Shown in pieces: positions 12,884 to 48,979 of a DNA stretch of 64,000 nucleotides. The DNA is taken from contig JAJFLH010000036.1 of NCBI GenBank assembly GCA_021772775.1, positions 24,800 through 88,799 on the forward strand, read 5' to 3'. The notes under the pieces are model-generated. The model saw only the letters and a program-made list of their open reading frames with translations. It had not been told where the DNA came from and made no database searches. The DNA is from Mariprofundus sp. Lineage in GTDB: Bacteria; Pseudomonadota; Zetaproteobacteria; Mariprofundales; Mariprofundaceae. A program made the translations under genes and the position numbers. How positions within the stretch are numbered: the first letter of the stretch is position 1; every line of letters begins with the position of its first letter.

Positions 12884-13500
12884 GCGTCGATAAAAACAGA
12901 GAAAGCACTTTTGAACAGGTATTTGAATTTATTTTATGGAGTGGTCGCTGGTCGGTTCTTCTTGCCGTCGTTGGTGGTATGCTCACCTCATTTGTGATGT
13001 TCTATATTGCTTCTGTAGATGTTTACCACCTGGGCAATTTGGTGCTGCAATATATGGAAACTACGGATCTCACGGCTCGCGAAGCATTAAGAGCAGATAC
13101 TGTCGGCCATGCAGTTGAAGTCATTGATGGTTTTCTTTTGGCCATTGTATTGCTGATTTTCTCTTACGGCATCTTTGAGCTTTATGTCAGTAAAATTTTT
13201 CAGGCCTATGACTCCAGCACAGCTCAACACCTGCTCAAAATCAATAGCTTAGATGATCTGAAAGCACGACTCGGCAAAGTTATTCTGATGATTCTGGTCG
13301 TTAAATTCTTTGAAGTGGCGATCAGCATGGATTTTGCCACCATGAGAGATTTATTGCTATTTTCAGCCTCCATCATTCTGATTGGCATCACACTATTCAT
13401 GAATCAACTGGTAGAGCACATTGTGCACAACAGGCGCAGTACTGATTTCAAACGAAGAGCAGAAGACTCAGGTAGCCACCCAGATCGCAGAGAGAGATAA
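12880..13500 (+). CDS. YqhA/UPF0114-family membrane protein (paralog 2)
   Basis: Same motifs as the upstream paralog. Overlaps it by 4 bp (ATGA). Confidence 0.85.
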   Translation: MSVDKNRESTFEQVFEFILWSGRWSVLLAVVGGMLTSFVMFYIASVDVYHLGNLVLQYMETTDLTAREALRADTVGHAVEVIDGFLLAIVLLIFSYGIFELYVSKIFQAYDSSTAQHLLKINSLDDLKARLGKVILMILVVKFFEVAISMDFATMRDLLLFSASIILIGITLFMNQLVEHIVHNRRSTDFKRRAEDSGSHPDRRER

Positions 13501-13550
13501 AACGTTCGCTAACAGTGCATTAGCCCCCTATCATTTGAAGGCTCTTATCA

Positions 13551-14090
13551 TTACGCTTTCCATCGCGTCAGAAAAACAATGATCGAATTCAACGCTTCCG
13601 GTTTTTTCATATCTCCGCGCGGCAACGTATAGTCCGCACACTCCTCATATAAAGGATAACGTATATCAGCCAGATCTTTTATCTTTTGGAGAGTATCACC
13701 ACCGGCAATCAAAGGGCGGTTACTATCCCCATCAATGCGCTTGGCTAGGAAGTTGGGGCTTGCTTTAAGCCATATCACGGGCGGATGATCTTTTAAAAGC
13801 TGCCGATTCTCCTCCGACATAACAGCACCACCACCTGTAGCAATCACCGCCGTTTTACCCAACACCTCACGCAAGGCTTCTGTCTCCAACTGACGGAAGA
13901 AAGCTTCGCCCTCCTGTTCAAAAATATCTGGAATAGAGCGACCGTCCTTCTCAACGATATATTCATCCAGATCAATCAAGGGTACATTGAGATGTTTCGC
14001 CAAACGTCGCCCAATACTGCTTTTCCCAGACCCCATAAGGCCTACTAAAACAGGACTAAGCTGCGCTATCTGTTCTTTTGAATCTTGCAT
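13551..14090 (-). CDS. aroK: Shikimate kinase
   Basis: P-loop GLMGSGKS, plus FRQLE, ATGGG and RPL motifs. Confidence 0.96.
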   Translation of the reverse strand: MQDSKEQIAQLSPVLVGLMGSGKSSIGRRLAKHLNVPLIDLDEYIVEKDGRSIPDIFEQEGEAFFRQLETEALREVLGKTAVIATGGGAVMSEENRQLLKDHPPVIWLKASPNFLAKRIDGDSNRPLIAGGDTLQKIKDLADIRYPLYEECADYTLPRGDMKKPEALNSIIVFLTRWKA

Positions 14091-38076: not shown

Positions 38077-38998
38077 GTGATCCGACGAGATCAGCATAAG
38101 CATCCATATCATTCTGTTCGAGATATTCGGACATGCCATCGAGTAGTTTCTTACACATCAAGGGATCATAAAAAAGGCCAGTTCCCACACCGATGGCATC
38201 AGCACCAACAATGGCAAATTCGACGGCATCCTTTGCATTGGCAATACCACCCTGCCCCAAAATTGGAATACCATGTTTAGCAGCCACCGCCCGCGTCTGA
38301 TGAATTTTCCACAACGCTACCGGTTTAATCGCAGGGCCAGAGAGACCTCCTGAGACATTATCGATGATCGGTTTTCGACTGTTGATATCGACTGCCATGC
38401 CCACCAATGTATTGATCACGGAGAGACCATCACTGCCCGCCTCAATGACTGCACGTGCAGTTTCTGCAATATCGGCGTTATTTGGAGAGAGCTTGGTAAT
38501 CAGAGGCTTTTTCGTCATCGGACGCATCGCTTCAACTACACGTGCAGCCATGGCCGGATTATTACCAAAATGTACCCCTCCCTCTTTCACATTGGGGCAG
38601 GAGATATTAATTTCAATAGCGGTAACGGGTGAATCATCAAAGATACGTGCCATCTCGGCATACTCTTCAGGACTGGTTCCATTTGCGTTGGCCCAGAACT
38701 GCGTCTCATCATGCGGCAAATTTGGCAGGATGTTATCAATCACATAACGCGCACCGGGGTTTTGCAAACCAATTGCATTGAGCATACCCGAAGGGGTCTC
38801 ATACAGCCTACGCGGTGCATTGCCCATGCGCGGCTCTAATGTCGTGCCTTTGAGGATCACCGCGCCAATATCGCGATTATCCCAACCTTCGATATGGGTG
38901 TACTCCTCACCAAAGCCGACACAGCCAGAGAGTAGTACAAGTGGTGTTTGCAGCTTAAGTCCTGCAAAAGAGACGGAGAGATCTTTATGTAGAGTCAT
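38063..38998 (-). CDS. pyrD: Dihydroorotate dehydrogenase, family 1 catalytic subunit
   Basis: NAIGLQNPG, NISCPNV (catalytic Cys), KLSPN, INT and GGLSGPAIKP motifs. Confidence 0.95.
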   Translation of the reverse strand: MTLHKDLSVSFAGLKLQTPLVLLSGCVGFGEEYTHIEGWDNRDIGAVILKGTTLEPRMGNAPRRLYETPSGMLNAIGLQNPGARYVIDNILPNLPHDETQFWANANGTSPEEYAEMARIFDDSPVTAIEINISCPNVKEGGVHFGNNPAMAARVVEAMRPMTKKPLITKLSPNNADIAETARAVIEAGSDGLSVINTLVGMAVDINSRKPIIDNVSGGLSGPAIKPVALWKIHQTRAVAAKHGIPILGQGGIANAKDAVEFAIVGADAIGVGTGLFYDPLMCKKLLDGMSEYLEQNDMDAYADLVGSLVTK

Positions 38999-39010
38999 AG
39001 GCCAAGCATA
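38996..39010 (-). promoter_or_regulatory. -10 element directly before the pyrD start (leaderless candidate)
   Basis: TATGCT, 6 nt, then ATG. No Shine-Dalgarno sequence, and the -35 is weak. Confidence 0.45.
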
Positions 39011-39096
39011 GCGCCGAAAACAGATTCAGCCTATGATCTTTTTTGTGAAACGATTAACCTCCTCTATGAAGGTAAAAAAGGTGAAATAAATGCTTG

Positions 39097-39114
39097 TGAA
39101 AGTAAATACTCTCA
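39097..39114. promoter_or_regulatory. Candidate TetR-type operator
   Basis: Near-perfect inverted repeat TGA-a-AGTA-aa-TACT-c-TCA, 30 bp upstream of the TetR-domain gene. Confidence 0.45.
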
Positions 39115-39143
39115 TTTTTTATTCGCCTTATGGGTGAATTGAA

Positions 39144-39935
39144 GTGAAAACAAAAATTGCACAAACGCGTTGGAAACAGGTGCTTCGGGCTATCGATGAA
39201 ATCGCTGGCAAGGATCAACTGGCATTTATAACCACCCAGCGTGTATCGAGGCAGTCCGGCATTTCTGACGGTGTTCTGTTTCGTCATTTTTCTACCAAAG
39301 AAGTCATGTTGGCAACCTGGGTAGAGACTCGCGGCGATCAACTGCGCCTTCTGCTTGATGCCATGCCTGCCGGTCGAAGTGGTCTGATCTATCTGCTACA
39401 GCAGCTATTTCAACAAAAAGTCTTATTGAACTTTTTATGCTGCCAGCCAATGGACACACCATATTTACGGCAACTTTTGGACTCGTACCGTCTGCAATTC
39501 AACAGGGTCATACAGACCCGAATTGAGTTAATGAGTTCAACACCCATAGGAGTCACATCGGATGTACTTATCGATCATCTGATGCAATCGATTTATCGTG
39601 CCTGGAACCCCGACAACCCTGAGCGGGACTGGCAAAAGGAGCATCTCATGAATCAATTACCTTGGGAAAAAAACGAGATCAAAGACAACACGTTTCCATC
39701 ACAAGATATTATGCAAAGGCTAGCACTCAATGATAGCGGCTTTGTCTTTGACCCGGTCAATGGCAAGAGCTTCACAGCCAATGAAACAGGCATATATGCG
39801 CTGCGTTTTCTGCAACACAGTAGTGATAGCGAAGCTCTGTTGGTGGCTATTGCACGCGATTTCGAAGTCAGTCAATCCGATGCTGCGCGTGATATCACCG
39901 AGTTCTCCAGCCAACTGCGCAAGTTTCTGCAATGA
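39144..39935 (+). CDS. TetR-family HTH regulator fused to a C-terminal PqqD/RRE-like domain
   Basis: N-terminal TQRVSRQSGISDGVLFRHFSTKE, and C-terminal LALNDSGFVFDPVNGKSFTANETG...ARDFEVSQSDAARDITEF. GTG start. Confidence 0.8.
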   Translation: MKTKIAQTRWKQVLRAIDEIAGKDQLAFITTQRVSRQSGISDGVLFRHFSTKEVMLATWVETRGDQLRLLLDAMPAGRSGLIYLLQQLFQQKVLLNFLCCQPMDTPYLRQLLDSYRLQFNRVIQTRIELMSSTPIGVTSDVLIDHLMQSIYRAWNPDNPERDWQKEHLMNQLPWEKNEIKDNTFPSQDIMQRLALNDSGFVFDPVNGKSFTANETGIYALRFLQHSSDSEALLVAIARDFEVSQSDAARDITEFSSQLRKFLQ

Positions 39936-41035
39936 ATCAAGCATCGGATAAAAAAATAACCATCGCTGTCACCGGCATGAATGCCAAGCCAGATAATCCT
40001 GGCCCCGGTCTTGCCGTAGCGCGTTGTTTGCGTCTGGCACACGGCGATCAAGTGCGTATCATAGGTTTGGGTTATGACGTACTCGATGCCGGTTTGTATT
40101 TGGATGATATCTGTGATGCCGCCTATCTACTGCCCTACCCTTCGGCCGGTGAGCAGCAGCTGATGGAGCGTATGGATTATATTCAGCAACAAGAGTCGAT
40201 TGATGTACTTATTCCTTGTCTGGATGCTGAGCTATTAAGTTTTAGTCGCCTGCATCACGAATTTGAACATCTGGGCATTCGTATGCTCATTCCTGATGTC
40301 AGCCAGTTGCGTGATCGCAATAAAGATCGATTAGGGGAACTAGCAAGAAATGCCGGCATCCGATACCCGGAGACAAAAAACATCACCAGCGCCAATTTCT
40401 TTTATCGCTGCCATGATGACAACTGGAGCTATCCGATGGTGGTCAAAGGTATCTTTTACGATGCCACTATTGTGCATAACGCTGATGAAGGGGCCGAAGC
40501 ATTTCGAAACATTGCCGCCAGCTGGGGATATCCGGTTTTGGTGCAACGTTATGTGGAAGGCCATGAGGTGAACCTGACTGCCATTGGAGATGGCAAAGGT
40601 GAACTGCTTGGGGCTGTCATGATGCGCAAACAGGCCGTCACCGATAAAGGTAAAGCCTGGTCATGTGTCACTATTGAGGATCAGCGATTGGAGAGTGATG
40701 CGCTGAAACTGGTGCAGGCACTGCAGTGGGCAGGCCCTTTGGAAGTGGAAATGCTCAAGGAGTCAGACGGACAATACTTGCTGATTGAAATCAACCCCCG
40801 CTTCCCTGCCTGGATTTATCTTGCAGCTGAGGCAGGCAGCAATCTACCAGCGGGTTTAGTGGATTTGATCATGAACAAACAGAGTTTATTTGAGCCCCCC
40901 AAAACAGGCATGATGATGATTCGTTACGCGCAAGAGACCGTCATTGATTTGAGTACCTTCGAAGCCATGGCCATGCATGGCCGTTATATAGCAGATGTGA
41001 ACAGAGAAAATGGGCAGGAGCTAAATTATGAATGA
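39932..41035 (+). CDS. ATP-grasp-domain protein (amide ligase-like)
   Basis: IDVLIPCLDAEL, YPMVVKG, LVQRYVEGHE, GPLEVEM and LIEINPRF motifs. Confidence 0.9.
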   Translation: MNQASDKKITIAVTGMNAKPDNPGPGLAVARCLRLAHGDQVRIIGLGYDVLDAGLYLDDICDAAYLLPYPSAGEQQLMERMDYIQQQESIDVLIPCLDAELLSFSRLHHEFEHLGIRMLIPDVSQLRDRNKDRLGELARNAGIRYPETKNITSANFFYRCHDDNWSYPMVVKGIFYDATIVHNADEGAEAFRNIAASWGYPVLVQRYVEGHEVNLTAIGDGKGELLGAVMMRKQAVTDKGKAWSCVTIEDQRLESDALKLVQALQWAGPLEVEMLKESDGQYLLIEINPRFPAWIYLAAEAGSNLPAGLVDLIMNKQSLFEPPKTGMMMIRYAQETVIDLSTFEAMAMHGRYIADVNRENGQELNYE

Positions 41036-42434
41036 TGCAACGCATGAAATAAGTGAAAAAAAGAGATGGAGCAAACCCACGCTAACACCGCACCGCATCG
41101 GTTCGTTAAACAAGTTTGGCAGTGTCAGCGGTGGTCATTATCAGGATAGCTTTGAAGGTGTTCCCATTGCATCCCTCTTAGAAGAGTACGGTTCACCGCT
41201 ATTCGTTCTGTCGGAACAACGTCTGCGTAATAATGTGCGCAAACTTCTGCGCGCCTTTGAAACGCGCTATGGCAATGTCATCTACAGCTGGTCCTATAAA
41301 ACTAACTATCTGGCAGCTGTCTGCAGCACCCTGCATCAGGAAGGCGCATGGGCCGAAGTAGTTTCAGCATTCGAATATGAAAAAGCCCGCCAGCTTGGCA
41401 TGCCTGCAGAAAAAATCCTCTTTAATGGCCCGCACAAAGAGCGTCCCATCCTTGAGCGCGTGGTTGCAGAAGGTGCACGTATTCATATCGATCATCTCGA
41501 TGAACTTTATCTATTGGAAGATGTTGCCAAAGCGGCAGGCAAACAAGTTGATGTCACCATGCGTCTCAATTTCGACACAGGATTCACCGAACCATGGAGT
41601 CGTTTCGGTTTTAATATCGAATCAGGTCAGGCCCTCGATGCAGCCCGCATTCTCGGTGATAGCAAATATCTCAACCTGTGTGGTCTGCACAGTCATCTGG
41701 GCACATTTATTCTCGATCCTCGCGCTTATGGTGTACAAGTCCGAATCATGTGTGCTTTTATGGATAAGGTAGAAGTACTAACTGGCTGCACAATCGAAAG
41801 CATCGATATTGGTGGCGGTTTTGCCTCCATGAACTCCTTGCAAGGCACCTATTTGCCACCGGAACAGGTAGTACCAAGCATGGATCAGTATGCCGAAACG
41901 ATCTGCACTGCACTGAATGATGCTACCCGCGAACGTGATCTGCAGGGCAAGGGCAGACCTCGCCTTATTTTGGAAAGCGGCAGAGCCGTTGTTGATGATG
42001 CTGAAATTCTGGTCTCATCTGTCGTCGCCAATAAACGCATGCCCGATGGCAGACGTTCGGTTGTCATTGATGCAGGTGTGAATCTGCTGTTTACCGGGTT
42101 TTGGTACAATCATCAGGTCACACCGACGCGCCAACTCGAAGGCGTGCCAGAAGACACCGTGCTCTACGGCCCCTTATGTATGAATATCGATATCATGCGT
42201 GCATCGGTACTACTGCCACCACTAAATGTCAGTGACTCCATTATTTTTAGTAATGTGGGCGCTTATAATAACACCCAATGGATGCAGTTTATTGAATACC
42301 GCCCCAATGTGGTGATGGTGCATGCCGGCAATCAGGTCTCGATTGTGAGAACTGCAGAAGATCTGCATGTGATGACCGAACAGGAGAGCGTTCCTGCTCA
42401 TCTCTGCTCGGTTGAACCACAGCAGGGCGATTAA
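41028..42434 (+). CDS. PLP-dependent fold-III decarboxylase (diaminopimelate/ornithine decarboxylase family) with N-terminal extension
   Basis: YSWSYKTNY (PLP Lys), FNGP, SRFG, GLHSHLG, DIGGGF, ESGR, GPLC and NVGAY motifs. Confidence 0.9.
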   Translation: MNDATHEISEKKRWSKPTLTPHRIGSLNKFGSVSGGHYQDSFEGVPIASLLEEYGSPLFVLSEQRLRNNVRKLLRAFETRYGNVIYSWSYKTNYLAAVCSTLHQEGAWAEVVSAFEYEKARQLGMPAEKILFNGPHKERPILERVVAEGARIHIDHLDELYLLEDVAKAAGKQVDVTMRLNFDTGFTEPWSRFGFNIESGQALDAARILGDSKYLNLCGLHSHLGTFILDPRAYGVQVRIMCAFMDKVEVLTGCTIESIDIGGGFASMNSLQGTYLPPEQVVPSMDQYAETICTALNDATRERDLQGKGRPRLILESGRAVVDDAEILVSSVVANKRMPDGRRSVVIDAGVNLLFTGFWYNHQVTPTRQLEGVPEDTVLYGPLCMNIDIMRASVLLPPLNVSDSIIFSNVGAYNNTQWMQFIEYRPNVVMVHAGNQVSIVRTAEDLHVMTEQESVPAHLCSVEPQQGD

Positions 42435-42436
42435 GC

Positions 42437-44647
42437 TTGCTCTTCACGCCACTGCAAAACCAGCTGAAAGCCTCTGTGACAAAAACAGCCACAGGCCTGT
42501 TCAGAGCCTATGGGGCAATTCTTTTTGCTGAGAAGCCTTGGATTGGTAGCCTCTTTTTGCTTGCCACCTTCTGGTTTCCCAATGCTGGTTTTGCAGGGCT
42601 ACTGGCTGCAATAACGGGTATGTTAACGGCCCGACTATTGAAATTCAGGAATCTGGAAAGCGGTCTGCATGTATACAACAGCCTGCTGGTCGGCCTATCA
42701 CTTGGGGCATACTACACCCTCGATATTCATCTGGCTGTGCTGATTGTATTGGGTGCAGTACTGGCAGTCTTCGCTACCGTTGCCATGGCTGATATAGCAT
42801 GGCGCCTGGGCCGATTGCCGGTCTTAAGCCTGCCTTTTGTGATCGTTGCCCTGACGGTAACACTGGCAGCACACAGCTATGGCACATTAAGCCGTTATCT
42901 GGTGCCACTGGTTCCCAATGAGGGATTGATTTCACCCTTTATAGATCAGCTCCTTACAGCACTCGGTTCGGCTTTTTTCACACCCCATCCACTGGCTGGA
43001 CTGCTACTGTTTACAGGGCTATTGATCTCATCACGCTATCTGGCTCTGCTGGCCGTCGCAGGATTTTTATGCGGCTTTTCGGCCTATGCATTCCTCTCCG
43101 GCAGTCCACATCCCGATCTGGTGGCATGGAATGGCTTTAATTTTATTCTCGTGGCTATGGCACTCGGTGGTCTATTTACCGTACCCAGTTTGCCAACCTT
43201 TCTATTGGCCATGGTAGGTGCAGTTATTGCTGCGCTTGTCACCTCTGCCTCTGAAACGTTTATGCTGGTTTACGGCCTACCGGTGATGGCCCTACCCTTT
43301 TTAATTACCACACTGACTATTCTTCTTGCGCTTACCCACAGGCCAGCCTCTGATTCTTTACAGCTTACTTTGGATGCACCGACGCTTCCAGAAAAAAGTG
43401 CCGAACGAGCACGTCTGGCTATGGTTCGACATGGTGAATTTAACAGTATTCCTGTGCTAGCTCCGTTTTATGGTCGTTGGGAGGTTTATCAGGGCTTTAA
43501 TGGAAAACATACACATCAAGCGCCATGGCAACACGCACTCGACTTTTACATTGTTGAAGATGAACAGAGCTATCATACCGATGGTGTGAACTTGGTGGAT
43601 TATTACTGTTTTGGTCTACCGGTACTTTCTCCGGTTGGTGGCTATGTTGTAAAAACACTGGATAGCCTACCAGACAATCCTCCCGGCCAGGTTGATTTGG
43701 AAAACAACTGGGGCAATCATGTAGTGATCCGTATGCCTAATGGCCTCTATGCCCTGCTCGCACATCTAAAACAGGGCAGTGTGTGTGTAAAAACAGGGGC
43801 ATATCTGCAACCCGGGCAACAGCTTGCTGAATGCGGCAGTTCTGGCCGCTCCCCTCAGCCGCATCTGCATCTGCATATTCAATGGGGTGAAGCGCTTGGC
43901 TCAGCCACCCACCCTTTCCACTTAACCACAGTATTACATCAATCCAATGATCATAGTTCAACAGACTCCCCATCAAACCACACGACTCACGCAGACTTCA
44001 AACTGTTTTCCCGTCCCACTGAGGGAGAGCGTATCATGATGCCCAAAGTTGACTTGGCACTGGTCGAAAGTTTGAGATTAAGTGTGGGCAGGAAATTTTG
44101 TTATCAGGTCACACATGGCAATAGATCAGAAAAAAGAGAGCTGTTGGTCACCCTCAATTTAGCGGGGCAGTTACGCCTGACTGCAGATTCAGGTGCCAGT
44201 GCTGCATTCACTTCACAAGATCATCTGCTGGCATTTTATGATCGCCAGGGGCCTAAAGATGTATTTTTAGATACATGGTTACTGGCGCTCGGTTTGATGC
44301 CATTAACGGAAGGGGAATTAAACTGGAACGATCAACCTTCGATGCAGCTGCTACCCATGAGCTGGAAACAGAACTGGCTGGGTAAACTATTACGCCCATT
44401 GGGCGGTGGCATCGACAGCCGTTATGAGCGTCAATGGGATGGTAAATATTGGCAACAATCGGCCCAGCACAGCTTATCTCTTAGTTTAGGGCAACAGATC
44501 AAAGCGCAGTCATCAGTAAGTATTGAACCCCGCATGGGATGCAAACGCATTTCGATCAATAGTGCAGCAGGAAACCTTGAGGCCACACTGCTGGAAGTAG
44601 GGCAAAAAGCAGATGCCGGTATTCCAGCATGGAAAATTAAGGCATGA
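42437..44647 (+). CDS. Urea-transporter (UT)-family membrane domain fused to an M23-like peptidase domain and an unknown C-terminal domain
   Basis: UT repeats LPVLSLPF and LPVMALPF, plus YNSLLVG and GFNFILV. M23 motifs PVLSP, NWGNHVVI, AHLKQGS and SGRSPQPHLH. TTG start. Confidence 0.85.
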   Translation: MLFTPLQNQLKASVTKTATGLFRAYGAILFAEKPWIGSLFLLATFWFPNAGFAGLLAAITGMLTARLLKFRNLESGLHVYNSLLVGLSLGAYYTLDIHLAVLIVLGAVLAVFATVAMADIAWRLGRLPVLSLPFVIVALTVTLAAHSYGTLSRYLVPLVPNEGLISPFIDQLLTALGSAFFTPHPLAGLLLFTGLLISSRYLALLAVAGFLCGFSAYAFLSGSPHPDLVAWNGFNFILVAMALGGLFTVPSLPTFLLAMVGAVIAALVTSASETFMLVYGLPVMALPFLITTLTILLALTHRPASDSLQLTLDAPTLPEKSAERARLAMVRHGEFNSIPVLAPFYGRWEVYQGFNGKHTHQAPWQHALDFYIVEDEQSYHTDGVNLVDYYCFGLPVLSPVGGYVVKTLDSLPDNPPGQVDLENNWGNHVVIRMPNGLYALLAHLKQGSVCVKTGAYLQPGQQLAECGSSGRSPQPHLHLHIQWGEALGSATHPFHLTTVLHQSNDHSSTDSPSNHTTHADFKLFSRPTEGERIMMPKVDLALVESLRLSVGRKFCYQVTHGNRSEKRELLVTLNLAGQLRLTADSGASAAFTSQDHLLAFYDRQGPKDVFLDTWLLALGLMPLTEGELNWNDQPSMQLLPMSWKQNWLGKLLRPLGGGIDSRYERQWDGKYWQQSAQHSLSLSLGQQIKAQSSVSIEPRMGCKRISINSAAGNLEATLLEVGQKADAGIPAWKIKA

Positions 44648-44689
44648 ACAATACGATGAATTTCAAAAAAATGAAAATTGGAGGATAAT

Positions 44690-45592
44690 ATGAATATACA
44701 ACGGCACATGGTTTTGATGGCCTTTATCGCCAGCCTGTTCTCTGTTCAGCATACAGCCATGGCAGAAGAGAGTGACTGGACACTGAAAACAGATATTCAA
44801 GCCATCTATGGCAGTTACAGCGGTTCTCTTTCGCGCAAATCCCTTACCGGCGGCGGCCTGATTCTTAATGCGGATTATCTTGATCTGGGCGGTTTTTCAT
44901 TGGGTGCGAATTACGCCCAACTCGCATTCAGAAATGTCACCAATGATATCAAACAACAATCCTATTACGGAAGCTTGCACTACAACGCCTACCTCGATGC
45001 CATTCCCGGCCCGCTGACGCTGCGTTTGGATGGGCATGGTATAAATAATAATGACGCCAGTGGAAACACCGACAATGTGCGTGTCATTGCGCCACAAATA
45101 TCTTTTTTGAATTATGACAAAAGCTTTTATGCTGATCTCGGCTATGCCTATTCAACCTATCAGAACAACCTCAAAGTACATCAATTCACACCCACACTGG
45201 GCTTTGGCTTTAATGCATTGGCCGACTGGATACGCATACGCGGCTACTTCATTGATCCATCCAACGCATTACGTGCCCAAAACAAAAATAGCACCACCGC
45301 TGTAGAAGCCAAATGGACACATTGGTTTGATCCCGGTTCATGGCATAAACTAGATAACATGCAAATAGCGGGACTGGTAGGCGAAAGAATTTACGCTGTT
45401 GATAACGATGCAGCCGCTGTTTACAACCTGACAGACATTCAGCGTGGCTCCGTCTCTGTCGCTTTACAATGGAAGTTAACAGAACAGCTCAGTCTAATGC
45501 TGGTCGGAGGAAATGAACGTTATTTGAACAACACAGTTTCTGATGCCTACAGCAATCGTTATGGTTACCTTAATCTATCCACACAATGGTAA
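44690..45592 (+). CDS. Outer-membrane beta-barrel protein of unknown family
   Basis: Signal peptide (TAMA/EE), alternating beta-strand pattern and C-terminal YLNLSTQW. RBS GGAGG before ATG at 44690. Confidence 0.8.
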   Translation: MNIQRHMVLMAFIASLFSVQHTAMAEESDWTLKTDIQAIYGSYSGSLSRKSLTGGGLILNADYLDLGGFSLGANYAQLAFRNVTNDIKQQSYYGSLHYNAYLDAIPGPLTLRLDGHGINNNDASGNTDNVRVIAPQISFLNYDKSFYADLGYAYSTYQNNLKVHQFTPTLGFGFNALADWIRIRGYFIDPSNALRAQNKNSTTAVEAKWTHWFDPGSWHKLDNMQIAGLVGERIYAVDNDAAAVYNLTDIQRGSVSVALQWKLTEQLSLMLVGGNERYLNNTVSDAYSNRYGYLNLSTQW

Positions 45593-45615
45593 TGTTCAAT
45601 GCAAAGGAGAGCATC

Positions 45616-46236
45616 ATGTTAAAGTTTATATTGCTTCCAATCACATCAATTATTGTTGTGCTGATCAGTTTCACCACCACCGTTTACAGTGCTGAAATCA
45701 AAAGTCCTTGGAGTACCTCTTACACTTTAGAGGCCAATGGCGAATATGAAAAAGCCGCCTCAGTCATCTATCAATTTATAGACAGAGGCGCTGAAAATGA
45801 ATTTGCTCTGATACGCTATGGATGGCTCAATTATCTGCAAGGCAACTTCAATGACTCCATTCAGGCCTACCAACGGGCACTTGATCGCAACAATCGCTCT
45901 GTAGATGCACGGTTAGGCATTGCGCTTCCTCTTATGGCTCAGCGACGCTGGAGCAGTGCAGTGCGTTATTTGAAACAGGTCATAGGGCACTCCCCTCTCA
46001 ATTATACAGCCCATATCCGTTTGATGATCTGCGAAGAAGGCTTGCGCAAATGGGAGACTCTGGAAAAACATGCCAAAGAAGTCAGCATCCACTATCCCAC
46101 CGACACCTTAGCTCTGGTTTATCTTGCCCGTGCACATGCATGGCAGGGCGACAAACAAAAAGCCTATGCCGCATATAAACGCGTGCTTGTACGATACCCT
46201 GAACATCTGGAGGCTATCCGTTATTTAAACCCATAA
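45616..46236 (+). CDS. Secreted tetratricopeptide-repeat protein
   Basis: Signal peptide and TPR patterns (GWLNYLQGNFNDSIQAYQRAL, LARAHAWQGDKQKAYAAYKRVL). RBS AAGGAG. Confidence 0.85.
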   Translation: MLKFILLPITSIIVVLISFTTTVYSAEIKSPWSTSYTLEANGEYEKAASVIYQFIDRGAENEFALIRYGWLNYLQGNFNDSIQAYQRALDRNNRSVDARLGIALPLMAQRRWSSAVRYLKQVIGHSPLNYTAHIRLMICEEGLRKWETLEKHAKEVSIHYPTDTLALVYLARAHAWQGDKQKAYAAYKRVLVRYPEHLEAIRYLNP

Positions 46237-46270: not shown

Positions 46271-48979
46271 ATGCATGATAGACAAGGTGTGAGCGACATA
46301 AAAATACAGCGCGGCATGCGTTGGCGACTAATGCTTGGCATGGTCGGCATGATTGTGACCATGGTTGTTCTGTTAACCGTGTTACAGATCTCTGCACAAA
46401 AGGATAGTCTGAATAGCGCGCTTGCCTCACATACTTTTTTTCTTGAAGAGCAGCTGCATAAGAAAGCTGAAAAGGCTAGCAGCCAGATGTCAGGTCATAT
46501 CGAACGACTTATTTCAACCTATCGCCTTACTCTGGCCAATGAGTTTATTCGTAATGTCATCCGGGATATTGATGATTTGAGTTATGTCATATTGATGGAG
46601 GGAGGTGCTCCAAAGATAGCCATCGGCAGTGACCTTGTGGATGCCGAGTTACGTAAACATATTCTATCCGGTGACATTTCAGGTTTAGCGGCAAAACAAA
46701 CAGAAAAAATGCATCATGATTTTATTTTCGCAGATCATGGTTTCATGGAAAACGTAGTACCAATCATGCGGCATCAGGAGCAATGGGGGGTATTACGCCT
46801 TGGTTTTTCACGCGATGAATTGAATAACAATTTGGCATCTTCGCAGCTACGCATTCATCAAGAGATCAAAGATGCCTTATTCAAAACCTCGTTAACGTCG
46901 TTGATCTTTCTCATACTGGGGGCATTAACGGTCTATTATTTTGCCCGCCGCTGGACTGATCCCATTCAAAAGCTGGTGCATTTCTCCAACCGACTCGCCA
47001 GTGGTGATTTTTCTGCCACAGCCCATATCAGTACACGCCGTGATGATGAGATTGGTCTATTGGTTGTATCTCTGGAAGATATGGCAGCCTCCCTCAAACA
47101 GTCGTATGCTCAACTGGAAGAGCACAGTCATACACTCGAAGAGAAAGTAGAAAAACGCACCCATGAGTTAGCCGAAGCCCGTGATAAAGCCCTGGCTGCA
47201 ACACAAACAAAGAGTGAATTCCTGGCCAATATGTCGCATGAGATTCGCACCCCGATGAATGCAATCATAGGTATGGCACATCTGGCGCAGGATATGGCCA
47301 CAGCAGCTCCCCAGCGCCAGTATTTAAATAAGATTCTCACCGCTTCAGAGAACTTATTAAAAATCATCAATGATATTCTTGATTTCTCTAAAGTCGAAGC
47401 GGGTAAACTGGTATTGGAAGCCACAGACTTTCAGCTACAAGAGACGCTGAATCATGTTGAAAGCATCGCAAGTGTCCAGGCACATCAGAAAGGTCTCGAC
47501 TTTGCCTTTGACTCTCCAGCTGATTTACCTGTATTGCATGGTGATTCATTGCGTTTGGGGCAAATTTTACTCAACCTGACCACCAATGCGGTGAAGTTTA
47601 CAGCCTCAGGACATGTGCGTATCACGGTCGAAGTGGTTGAAAAAAACGAATCAACTATCGATCTTCATTTCAGCATCTCCGATTCTGGCATAGGCATGGC
47701 TGAAGAGCAGATGTCACATCTGTTTGAAGCCTTTACACAGGCCGATGCTTCGACCACGCGCAATTATGGCGGCACAGGATTGGGGCTCGCCATCTGCAAA
47801 CAACTGGTTGACATGATGCAGGGCAAAATCGTCGTTGAGAGCACGCCGAATCAAGGTAGTTGTTTCCATGTAAACATACAATTCGGCTTAGGCAATCCAC
47901 TCTTTATAGCTACAAAAACACCATCACCCCAAACCATGCAGTCGCTGCAAGGAACACGCTTGTTATTGGTTGAAGATTATGAAATAAACCAGCAGGTCGC
48001 AGAAGGGTTGTTATCCAAAGCAGGTGTAAGTCTGCACATCGTCGATAACGGAAAAAAGGCTGTTGATGCCGTTAAGAGCGAGGTATTTGATGGTGTTCTG
48101 ATGGATATGCAGATGCCTGTCATGGGTGGCATTGAAGCCACCCGCCTCATTCGTGCCGATGGGCGTTTCAATGAGCTTCCGATCATCGCCATGACCGCCA
48201 ATGCCATGCCCGAAGATCGACAAATGTGCATCGAAGCAGGCATGAATGATCATCTCACCAAACCCATTCATCCAGACGCCCTCTACAACACCTTGTCACG
48301 CTGGATCACAATTTCAGCACCAGCCATCACTGCAGAACCTTTACCCATGAAGAGCCCAAAGACCAATGATGATATCGGTTTTTCAGCACTGCGTGGCATT
48401 GATATCTCAGATGGTTTGCAACGGGTTGCGGGTGACCAACAGTTGTATGCGGCTATTTTATGTAAATTTCGTCATTCACAAGCTGATAGTTTGCAGAATA
48501 TGCAAGCCGCAACCGTAGCAAGTGATTTTGAACAGGCGGCATCTATAGCGCATGCCTTAATAGGTTTAGCTGGCAATATTGGAGCCAAAGAGCTCGCAGC
48601 ACATATCCGCACATTGGAATTTTCATTTACAAACGGTAAAGCTATTGATCTGCCAACATGGCAAGCTGCAGAGCAGCAGCTCTCATACATTATCGACAGC
48701 ATAGAACCCCTATGCGAAACAATCGCTACAACTAAAAAAACAGCTCCAGCTACAGATCATGCAGCAGCCAAACAGCTCATCACTCAGATGAGAAGCTTAT
48801 TAGAAGAGTCTGATGGCGATGCTGTTGATCTACTCGATGAACTCAGCGCAACTCTGGGAGATCATGCAACGAATCAGCATATTTCAATGCTCAGGCAGCA
48901 TCTCTCCGGCTATGACTTCGACGCAGCACTGGAAGATCTATCTGCCATATCACAACTGAACACCAATGCAGAAGAATAA
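46271..48979 (+). CDS. Membrane hybrid histidine kinase: periplasmic sensor, HAMP, HisKA, HATPase, REC, Hpt
   Basis: Two TMs, FLANMSHEIRTPMNAII, NLTTNAVKFT, YGGTGLGL, LMDMQMP and Hpt motif AHALIGLAGNIGA. Start uncertain. Confidence 0.92.
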   Translation: MHDRQGVSDIKIQRGMRWRLMLGMVGMIVTMVVLLTVLQISAQKDSLNSALASHTFFLEEQLHKKAEKASSQMSGHIERLISTYRLTLANEFIRNVIRDIDDLSYVILMEGGAPKIAIGSDLVDAELRKHILSGDISGLAAKQTEKMHHDFIFADHGFMENVVPIMRHQEQWGVLRLGFSRDELNNNLASSQLRIHQEIKDALFKTSLTSLIFLILGALTVYYFARRWTDPIQKLVHFSNRLASGDFSATAHISTRRDDEIGLLVVSLEDMAASLKQSYAQLEEHSHTLEEKVEKRTHELAEARDKALAATQTKSEFLANMSHEIRTPMNAIIGMAHLAQDMATAAPQRQYLNKILTASENLLKIINDILDFSKVEAGKLVLEATDFQLQETLNHVESIASVQAHQKGLDFAFDSPADLPVLHGDSLRLGQILLNLTTNAVKFTASGHVRITVEVVEKNESTIDLHFSISDSGIGMAEEQMSHLFEAFTQADASTTRNYGGTGLGLAICKQLVDMMQGKIVVESTPNQGSCFHVNIQFGLGNPLFIATKTPSPQTMQSLQGTRLLLVEDYEINQQVAEGLLSKAGVSLHIVDNGKKAVDAVKSEVFDGVLMDMQMPVMGGIEATRLIRADGRFNELPIIAMTANAMPEDRQMCIEAGMNDHLTKPIHPDALYNTLSRWITISAPAITAEPLPMKSPKTNDDIGFSALRGIDISDGLQRVAGDQQLYAAILCKFRHSQADSLQNMQAATVASDFEQAASIAHALIGLAGNIGAKELAAHIRTLEFSFTNGKAIDLPTWQAAEQQLSYIIDSIEPLCETIATTKKTAPATDHAAAKQLITQMRSLLEESDGDAVDLLDELSATLGDHATNQHISMLRQHLSGYDFDAALEDLSAISQLNTNAEE

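Follow-up and report, generated by a model that had tools for sequence, protein, structure and literature searches.

The locus considered here raises the question of why a domain of the PqqD/RRE type should be joined, within a single open reading frame, to a TetR-type DNA-binding regulator, and of what such a protein would do at the head of a conserved gene cassette. The frame lies in a window of 64,000 nucleotides from Mariprofundus sp., a zetaproteobacterium, the window being the whole stretch of DNA analysed. RREs are usually treated as markers of peptide-modifying enzymes, and the RRE-Finder survey lists enzymes as their known fusion partners, regulators having been filtered out as false positives (PMC7470986). 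Because mining tools discard matches to regulators, an RRE carried by a DNA-binding domain falls into a blind spot. The enzyme-fused RREs, which are common, resemble the present case in that the RRE is one domain of a larger protein, and differ from it in that the partner here is a TetR regulator. A sequence-only reading of the frame had regarded such a fusion as unusual, and this is borne out in that neither a TetR–PqqD protein nor any RRE joined to a DNA-binding regulator is described in the literature searched; the fusion thus appears to be undescribed so far. The protein and its two parts are as follows:

39144–39935, forward strand: long product, a TetR–PqqD fusion of 263 aa with a GTG start (open reading frame call, Pfam, homologues, AlphaFold2, Foldseek and family profile)
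39144–39653, forward strand: TetR domain, residues 1–170, with HTH helices 1–3 and a six-helix core (AlphaFold2, Foldseek and dN/dS)
39702–39932, forward strand: PqqD/RRE winged-helix domain, residues 187–263 (PF05402, model topology, profile matches and a dN/dS of 0.09)

The sequence-only reading had placed a TetR helix-turn-helix (HTH) and a PqqD domain in this one frame and had proposed an HMM scan and a structure prediction as checks, which, taken together with a family profile, turn out in its favor as far as the two domains are concerned. In Pfam, PqqD (PF05402) is matched at residues 201–260 (32.4 bits; gathering score 23.4), and TetR_N (PF00440) at residues 30–56 with 21.9 bits, slightly below its gathering score of 24; PF00440 is matched in most orthologues of the fusion, according to the precomputed Pfam column of the homologue search. 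In NCBIfam all matches stay below the cutoff; they are SlmA and BetI for the N-terminal part, and for the C-terminal part the lasso-type PqqD chaperones (3.8e-6). A profile built from 21 family members and searched against the PDB retrieves UidR/GusR (E 2.9e-8), SlmA (E 2e-7) and dozens more TetR regulators on the N-terminal side, and the lasso-peptide RREs TfuB1 (E 0.0025) and TbiB1 (E 0.0039) on the C-terminal side. The doubt over the N-terminus is removed by these matches to solved TetR regulators. For the PqqD part the family profile is required, as the best match of this part alone in a single-sequence PDB search reaches only E 0.37, again to TfuB1.

The AlphaFold2 model of the fusion (mean pLDDT 88.5, pTM 0.65) comprises nine helices in the TetR part (residues 2–22, 31–38, 42–48, 52–73, 77–90, 92–99, 106–128, 139–154 and 161–170), a linker of low confidence at 171–186, and a PqqD part at 193–262 in which three short strands are followed by three helices (DSSP strand residues 194–195, 200–202 and 209–211; helices 214–225, 229–240 and 244–262). 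RREs are defined by three strands followed by three helices (PMC12710340), and the modelled topology agrees with this definition. In a Foldseek search against the PDB, the best 50 matches listed all belong to the TetR family, with 171–204 aligned columns and a probability of 1.0, and the neighbours among them include SlmA at the top, Bacillus subtilis FadR, and LuxR/HapR/SmcR. Because the model has nine helices and its structural matches are TetR proteins, the N-terminal part is, on the predicted fold, a complete TetR protein with HTH and core domain, so that of the earlier claim both domains stand, whereas the restriction of the first to an HTH does not. The HTH of the family follows the canonical pattern S-x-G-V-L-F-R-H-F-x-[ST]-K. 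Within the TetR core, a CCQPMD motif (residues 99–104, window positions 39438–39455) and a D-H pair (residues 144–145, 39573–39578) are conserved among the Zetaproteobacteria, and R116 and W154 are further conserved residues; L006, a distant fused form, lacks the CC and DH residues. Judged from conservation, CCQPMD and the D-H pair are a possible site for a small molecule, a metal or redox chemistry in these iron-oxidising bacteria.

The fusion is conserved well beyond the window. A homologue search yields 72 homologues with 41–94% identity, nearly all of 258–286 aa, from Mariprofundus, Ghiorsea and other Zetaproteobacteria where they are named, and database annotations call them either TetR family regulators or PqqD family chaperones. 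The full-length fused frame, free of stops, is present in 32 of 133 zetaproteobacterial species genomes, and a profile search of 1.84 billion representatives returns about 13 fused clusters at 50% identity, some of them from MAGs labelled Gammaproteobacteria, Magnetococcales or Alphaproteobacteria; with few exceptions, the other strong matches listed in that search are PqqD proteins of about 63–135 aa that stand alone. As to whether orthologues are fused or split, which the sequence-only reading had asked, they are fused in the 32 class genomes just counted, and stand-alone PqqD genes stand in the cassettes of most other lineages. The same reading had allowed that the fusion might be a sequencing error, to be recognised by a stop near codons 165–168 in close relatives. 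Such a stop occurs only in genome G006, directly after the K-E pair, where the TetR part has been deleted. Since open full-length frames recur in the 32 genomes and the 72 homologues, the idea that an assembly or sequencing artefact joined two genes is refuted: the same frame is open in 32 independent species genomes as well as in dozens of metagenomic contigs. Purifying selection acts strongly on both halves of the fusion: Nei–Gojobori dN/dS is lowest in the HTH (0.08), followed by the PqqD domain (0.09) and the TetR core (0.11), and reaches 0.27 at the junction.

In fused loci, the fusion always opens a conserved block of six genes whose flanks vary from locus to locus. The five genes that follow it in the window are:

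39932–41035, forward strand: ATP-grasp ligase, its start overlapping the stop of the fusion gene (ATGA) (PF15632 and PF02655; a neighbour in all loci)
41028–42434, forward strand: fold-III PLP decarboxylase resembling LysA/FslC, in which an N-terminal tail of about 30 residues is conserved (Pfam and NCBIfam-type matches)
42437–44647, forward strand: urea-transporter-like channel fused to an M23 peptidase domain (PF03253 and PF01551)
44678–45592, forward strand: outer-membrane 14-strand beta-barrel of 304 aa (signal peptide, C-terminal Trp, AlphaFold2 and Foldseek)
45586–46236, forward strand: TPR protein, with whose gene the conserved cassette ends (conserved in other loci)

The channel–peptidase protein has more than 1000 homologues. 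The barrel protein has no Pfam match, and its AlphaFold2 model (pLDDT 86, 14 strands) resembles the monomeric porins CymA and OmpG (Foldseek, 1e-10). Outside the class, at loci L005 and L007, the block opens with a stand-alone PqqD of 89–91 aa, which makes the fusion a variant, confined to certain lineages, of a cassette that is itself widespread. Nothing relevant to the six-gene cassette was found in the literature searched. The cassette contains no gene for a precursor peptide, nor do the loci have a conserved small ORF in common; since neighbouring cassette genes either overlap or are separated by 30 nt at most, a precursor gene could not be accommodated. The assignment of the PqqD/RRE domain stands at the level of the family and does not extend to a RiPP pathway, in which a precursor gene whose leader the RRE binds would be expected. 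The N-terminal tail of the decarboxylase, W.KP[TS][LI]TPH..G.LNKFG (41028–41130 in the window), recurs in conserved form in both fused and stand-alone cassettes and is, judged from its conservation, a candidate ligand of the RRE. Beside the stand-alone-PqqD cassettes of L005 (1178–3030) and L007 (3100–4713) lie two tandem 98-aa ORFs together with genes for a C39 peptidase and a SPOR protein; as a precursor system for the cassette, the tandem ORFs and the C39 peptidase were rejected, being absent from fused loci. In L077, from a gammaproteobacterial MAG, a c-type cytochrome gene (13409–13897) takes the place of the TPR gene. Directly 3' of the cassette in the window, on the same strand, a hybrid histidine kinase (HAMP-HisKA-HATPase-REC-Hpt) is encoded at 46271–48979, which at other loci is outside the conserved block.

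Between the two domains, the fused proteins share a short motif:

39657–39668, forward strand: LPWE junction motif, L172–E175, with P173 and W174 invariant (all fused clusters)

All fused clusters have LPWE, even the ones without the internal Met described below (P0195, P0199, P0200 and L076–L078), and it is missing from all 13 stand-alone PqqDs compared. In secondary stand-alone forms it has decayed to LTQN, LSSP or LSWQ. Since the motif is invariant in fused forms and has decayed where the TetR part was lost, its constraint is tied to the fused state. The cassettes of L076–L078 contain no second PqqD gene, and because they encode no other PqqD, the fused RRE itself must serve the pathway there.

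The gene carries, in addition, what looks like a second translation start just upstream of the junction:

39636–39641, forward strand: internal Shine–Dalgarno sequence AAGGAG, formed by codons K165–E166 (AAG GAG in 33 of 33 distinct genes)
39648–39935, forward strand: probable short product, a free PqqD of 95 aa beginning at the ATG of M169 (invariant M169 and stand-alone homologues)

K165 and E166 are encoded as AAG GAG in all 33 distinct fused genes, followed by six variable nucleotides and the invariant ATG of M169. Among about 70 conserved columns with a synonymous choice, these two are the only ones with zero codon entropy, and AAG and GAG are minority codons in the fused genes (36% and 35%). 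The codon comparison shows selection on AAGGAG-N6-ATG at the nucleotide level. Where the cassette has a stand-alone PqqD gene, that gene starts at the homologous Met (MGQL, MEQL or MNQL) and has a Shine–Dalgarno-like sequence of its own (AGGAGG, GAGGA, GGGAGG or AAGGAG). Three genomes of the class have a stand-alone PqqD devoid of the TetR part, and in two of them remnants of the fused form are left, namely ...QQKE, a stop and then Met in G006, and SKERRM in G018. In the ATP-grasp tree, in which the lineages outside the class are represented by two outgroup cassettes only, both long-branched, G006 and G018 are placed inside the fused clade (100/99), G006 being sister to fused genes (98/89). 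Because they are nested in this way, the two are read as independent secondary losses of the TetR part that rely on the internal start. The distant fused forms without the internal Met are also without the K-E pair. Given that the fused gene retains the internal Shine–Dalgarno sequence and its ATG, the gene in the window very probably yields both the fusion of 263 aa and a free PqqD of 95 aa, and the latter is predicted to be the counterpart of the separate PqqD encoded by the first gene of the six-gene cassette in most other lineages.

The start of the long form and the region before it contain three further features:

39130–39147, forward strand: ancestral ATG, now out of frame, which opens a five-codon mini-ORF, MGELK* (upstream-region alignment)
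39096–39115, unstranded: probable operator, an 8-4-8 palindrome GTGAAAGT-AAAT-ACTCTCAT (the sole conserved upstream block in fused loci)
39094–39122, forward strand: putative core promoter, with a -35-like TTGTGA (39094–39099), a 17-nt spacer containing the operator and a -10-like TTTTAT (39117–39122) (reading of the sequence)

The ancestral ATG is the start in most orthologues, and the 1-nt deletion that put it out of frame is common to the window and G086 (L012). The stop of the mini-ORF and the GTG at which the fusion starts share bases (GTGA), an arrangement that suggests coupling by termination and reinitiation. No Shine–Dalgarno sequence precedes the start of the long form, which may, to judge from this region, be translated from a leaderless mRNA.

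The upstream regions of fused loci are unalignable except for one block, CTTGTGAAAGT-N4-ACTYTCAT, with the ancestral ATG 14 nt on. The 20-bp operator consensus is GTGAAAGT-N4-ACTYTCAY, and every fused locus has it 14 nt 5' of the ancestral ATG; in L001 the repeat is perfect (GTGAAAGT/ACTTTCAC), and distant fused loci keep the putative operator as well (GTGAAAGCAAACACTTTCAC in L006 and GTGCAAGTATTTACTTTCAT in L077). The pattern TTGTGAAAGYNNNNRCTYTCRY, worth about 31 bits, has 34 exact matches among the 133 genomes, all within 32 of them, and the reversed control has none. These 32 genomes are exactly those with a full-length fusion, and 32 of the 34 sites are directly 5' of the fused gene, a co-occurrence that is confounded by adjacency, being in part co-inheritance, since deletion of the TetR part also removes the site. 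Around the operator, which overlaps the -35-like TTGTGA, an A-rich tract precedes and a T-rich -10-like hexamer follows. A consensus scan of 38900–39300 for promoters and terminators called none, the second hexamer having no A at position 2, and because no sigma-70 promoter was called, the operator-in-promoter geometry is one that we infer. Two other explanations of the palindrome were rejected. One is an RNA hairpin or attenuator: no change in one half-site (ACTCTCAT versus ACTTTCAC) is matched by a compensating change in the other, and the 4-nt centre is free to vary, so that the palindrome suits a DNA-binding dimer better than a stem of RNA. The other is a CRP/FNR-type site, in which TGTGA and TCAC would be separated by 6 nt, not by the 12 found here. 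TetR regulators bind palindromic operators, mostly at their own promoter or a neighbouring one, and are released from DNA by a ligand. As far as can be read from its position and conservation, the palindrome points to a dedicated autorepressor, and the earlier view of the protein as a repressor gains support from a conserved, putative operator at the gene's own promoter.

Taken as a working model, it is rather probable that the fusion gene both encodes a regulator dedicated to a cassette for biosynthesis and export and supplies the PqqD chaperone of that cassette. The long product would be a homodimeric TetR-type repressor that binds the 8-4-8 palindrome, a site whose conservation is observed directly; seated between the -35-like and -10-like elements, it would switch the whole operon off. 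From the same mRNA, the internal AAGGAG-N6-ATG would give the 95-aa free PqqD as the working chaperone, and one transcript would then supply little repressor and more chaperone, the long form having no Shine–Dalgarno sequence and perhaps a leaderless mRNA. The PqqD domain borne by the repressor would recognise the same partner as the free PqqD. Because no precursor gene exists, a peptide-like stretch within one of the cassette proteins is the probable partner, the decarboxylase N-tail being the obvious candidate. Repression could in this manner be tied to the occupancy or assembly of the pathway, either by allostery across the LPWE junction or by sequestration. That engagement of the RRE controls DNA binding by the repressor is proposed tentatively, with somewhat more doubt than confidence. 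The most specific version, a peptide-gated TetR switch in which the RRE reads a tag on a pathway protein such as the decarboxylase N-tail, thereby releasing or sequestering the repressor, while the free RRE competes for the tag, seems unlikely as a whole; operon transcription would in that case depend on the ratio of the two isoforms together with the assembly state of the biosynthetic complex.

The strongest objection to a sensory RRE is that the protein may be a conventional TetR regulator of small-molecule type, to which the RRE was attached as a passenger when a stop between coupled genes was lost, the free PqqD alone acting as chaperone. The conserved polar and Cys residues of the core (C99-C100-Q-P-M-D, R116, D144-H145 and W154) could form an ordinary ligand pocket, the linker is flexible and of low pLDDT, and in its favor are also the internal start retained in fused genes, the two lineages that dispensed with the TetR part and the cassettes of most lineages, where PqqD is separate. 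Against it, the fusion has stayed in frame down to about 40% identity, and LPWE is invariant and specific to fused forms; in L076–L078, where the internal Met is lacking, the fused RRE is the only one in the cassette, and the CC and DH of the supposed pocket are not conserved in distant fused L006. This explanation, the main rival, is considered rather unlikely.

The two-product part of the model can be challenged separately, as nucleotide conservation alone is silent on what AAGGAG does: it might be a Shine–Dalgarno-like pause site, or another nucleotide signal, that helps the TetR part to fold before PqqD emerges, only the long protein being made, and the existence of fused forms without an internal Met would be in keeping with this. 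Yet an ATG is found exactly 6 nt on, and is invariant, wherever AAGGAG occurs; stand-alone genes begin at the homologous Met with their own Shine–Dalgarno-like sequences; G006 and G018 rely on the internal start after losing the TetR part; and the distant fused forms that lack the Met have also lost the K-E pair. A pause signal is accordingly held to be quite improbable. Still less probable, to the point of being very remote, is a TetR-like part that does not bind DNA at all and serves the chaperone as a scaffold or dimerisation module. SlmA, the top structural and NCBIfam neighbour, would be its precedent, and TetR_N does fall below the gathering score, but SlmA is itself a DNA binder, the HTH is the most constrained part of the protein (dN/dS 0.08) and has the canonical pattern, and a conserved palindrome is present at the gene's own promoter.

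Several known systems share parts of the proposed arrangement. TetR-fold proteins whose activity is set by a protein partner, not by a small molecule, include AmtR with GlnK and DhaS with DhaQ, and SlmA with the FtsZ C-terminal tail (PDB 5HBU and 5HSZ) likewise shows a TetR fold governed by a peptide or protein, as proposed here. In SlmA, AmtR and DhaS, however, the partner binds the TetR core itself, whereas here a predicted peptide-recognition domain is appended. Internal initiation that gives two products from one gene is familiar from CheA-L/CheA-S, ClpB and IF2, in which an in-frame internal Shine–Dalgarno sequence and start yield the C-terminal part alone, as predicted for the fusion; the difference is that the short form here is the ancestral stand-alone gene, to which the long form adds a repressor. 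The lasso RREs TfuB1 (6JX3) and TbiB1 (5V1U), together with PqqD, belong to the same winged-helix family as the C-terminus of the fusion, with the same strand-then-helix topology, and are similar also in occupying the first gene of a biosynthetic operon; unlike them, the present domain is joined to a DNA-binding protein and has an ATP-grasp ligase and a PLP decarboxylase as neighbours, with no precursor gene and no lasso or PQQ enzymes. The mycofactocin cluster, as far as it is described in PMC8728441, is controlled by the TetR-family repressor MftR, its pathway depends on the PqqD-type RRE chaperone MftB, an example of a TetR repressor gene that neighbours an RRE gene, and the effector is a long-chain acyl-CoA. 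MftR and MftB are separate proteins in that account, whereas here one polypeptide carries both parts and an internal start for the RRE.

If the RRE does gate the repressor, the fusion would be a natural peptide-responsive TetR switch, of relevance to the RiPP field and to synthetic biology, and the peptide-gated version, if true, would make it the first natural RRE serving as the sensor of a transcription factor. Two products from one gene, backed by selection at synonymous sites, would provide a clean example of a fusion that keeps the ancestral stand-alone protein. The fusion and its operator also offer a genetic handle on the widespread six-gene cassette, as loss of either the repressor or the operator should switch the cassette on.

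With regard to a wider regulon, the exact pattern search of the 133 genomes revealed no conserved second target, because the only two further copies of the operator, in G000 and G106, adjoin unrelated genes that lie 3' of them. The copy in G106, a close relative, is exact and is located at 2244–2265 of L079 (contig 35), 5' of a gene for a small His/Met-rich putative lipoprotein; other genomes do not conserve it. The copy in G000 (contig 12, 125667–125688; about 3168–3189 of L045, minus strand) has promoter-like flanks (CTTGTGAAAGCAATTACTTTCATTTTTTATGCACTTAATGGGT) and lies 5' of a gene for a 180-aa Mor/HTH-like protein (L045 2574–3116, minus strand), so that it could be either an extra member of the regulon or a duplicated promoter fragment.
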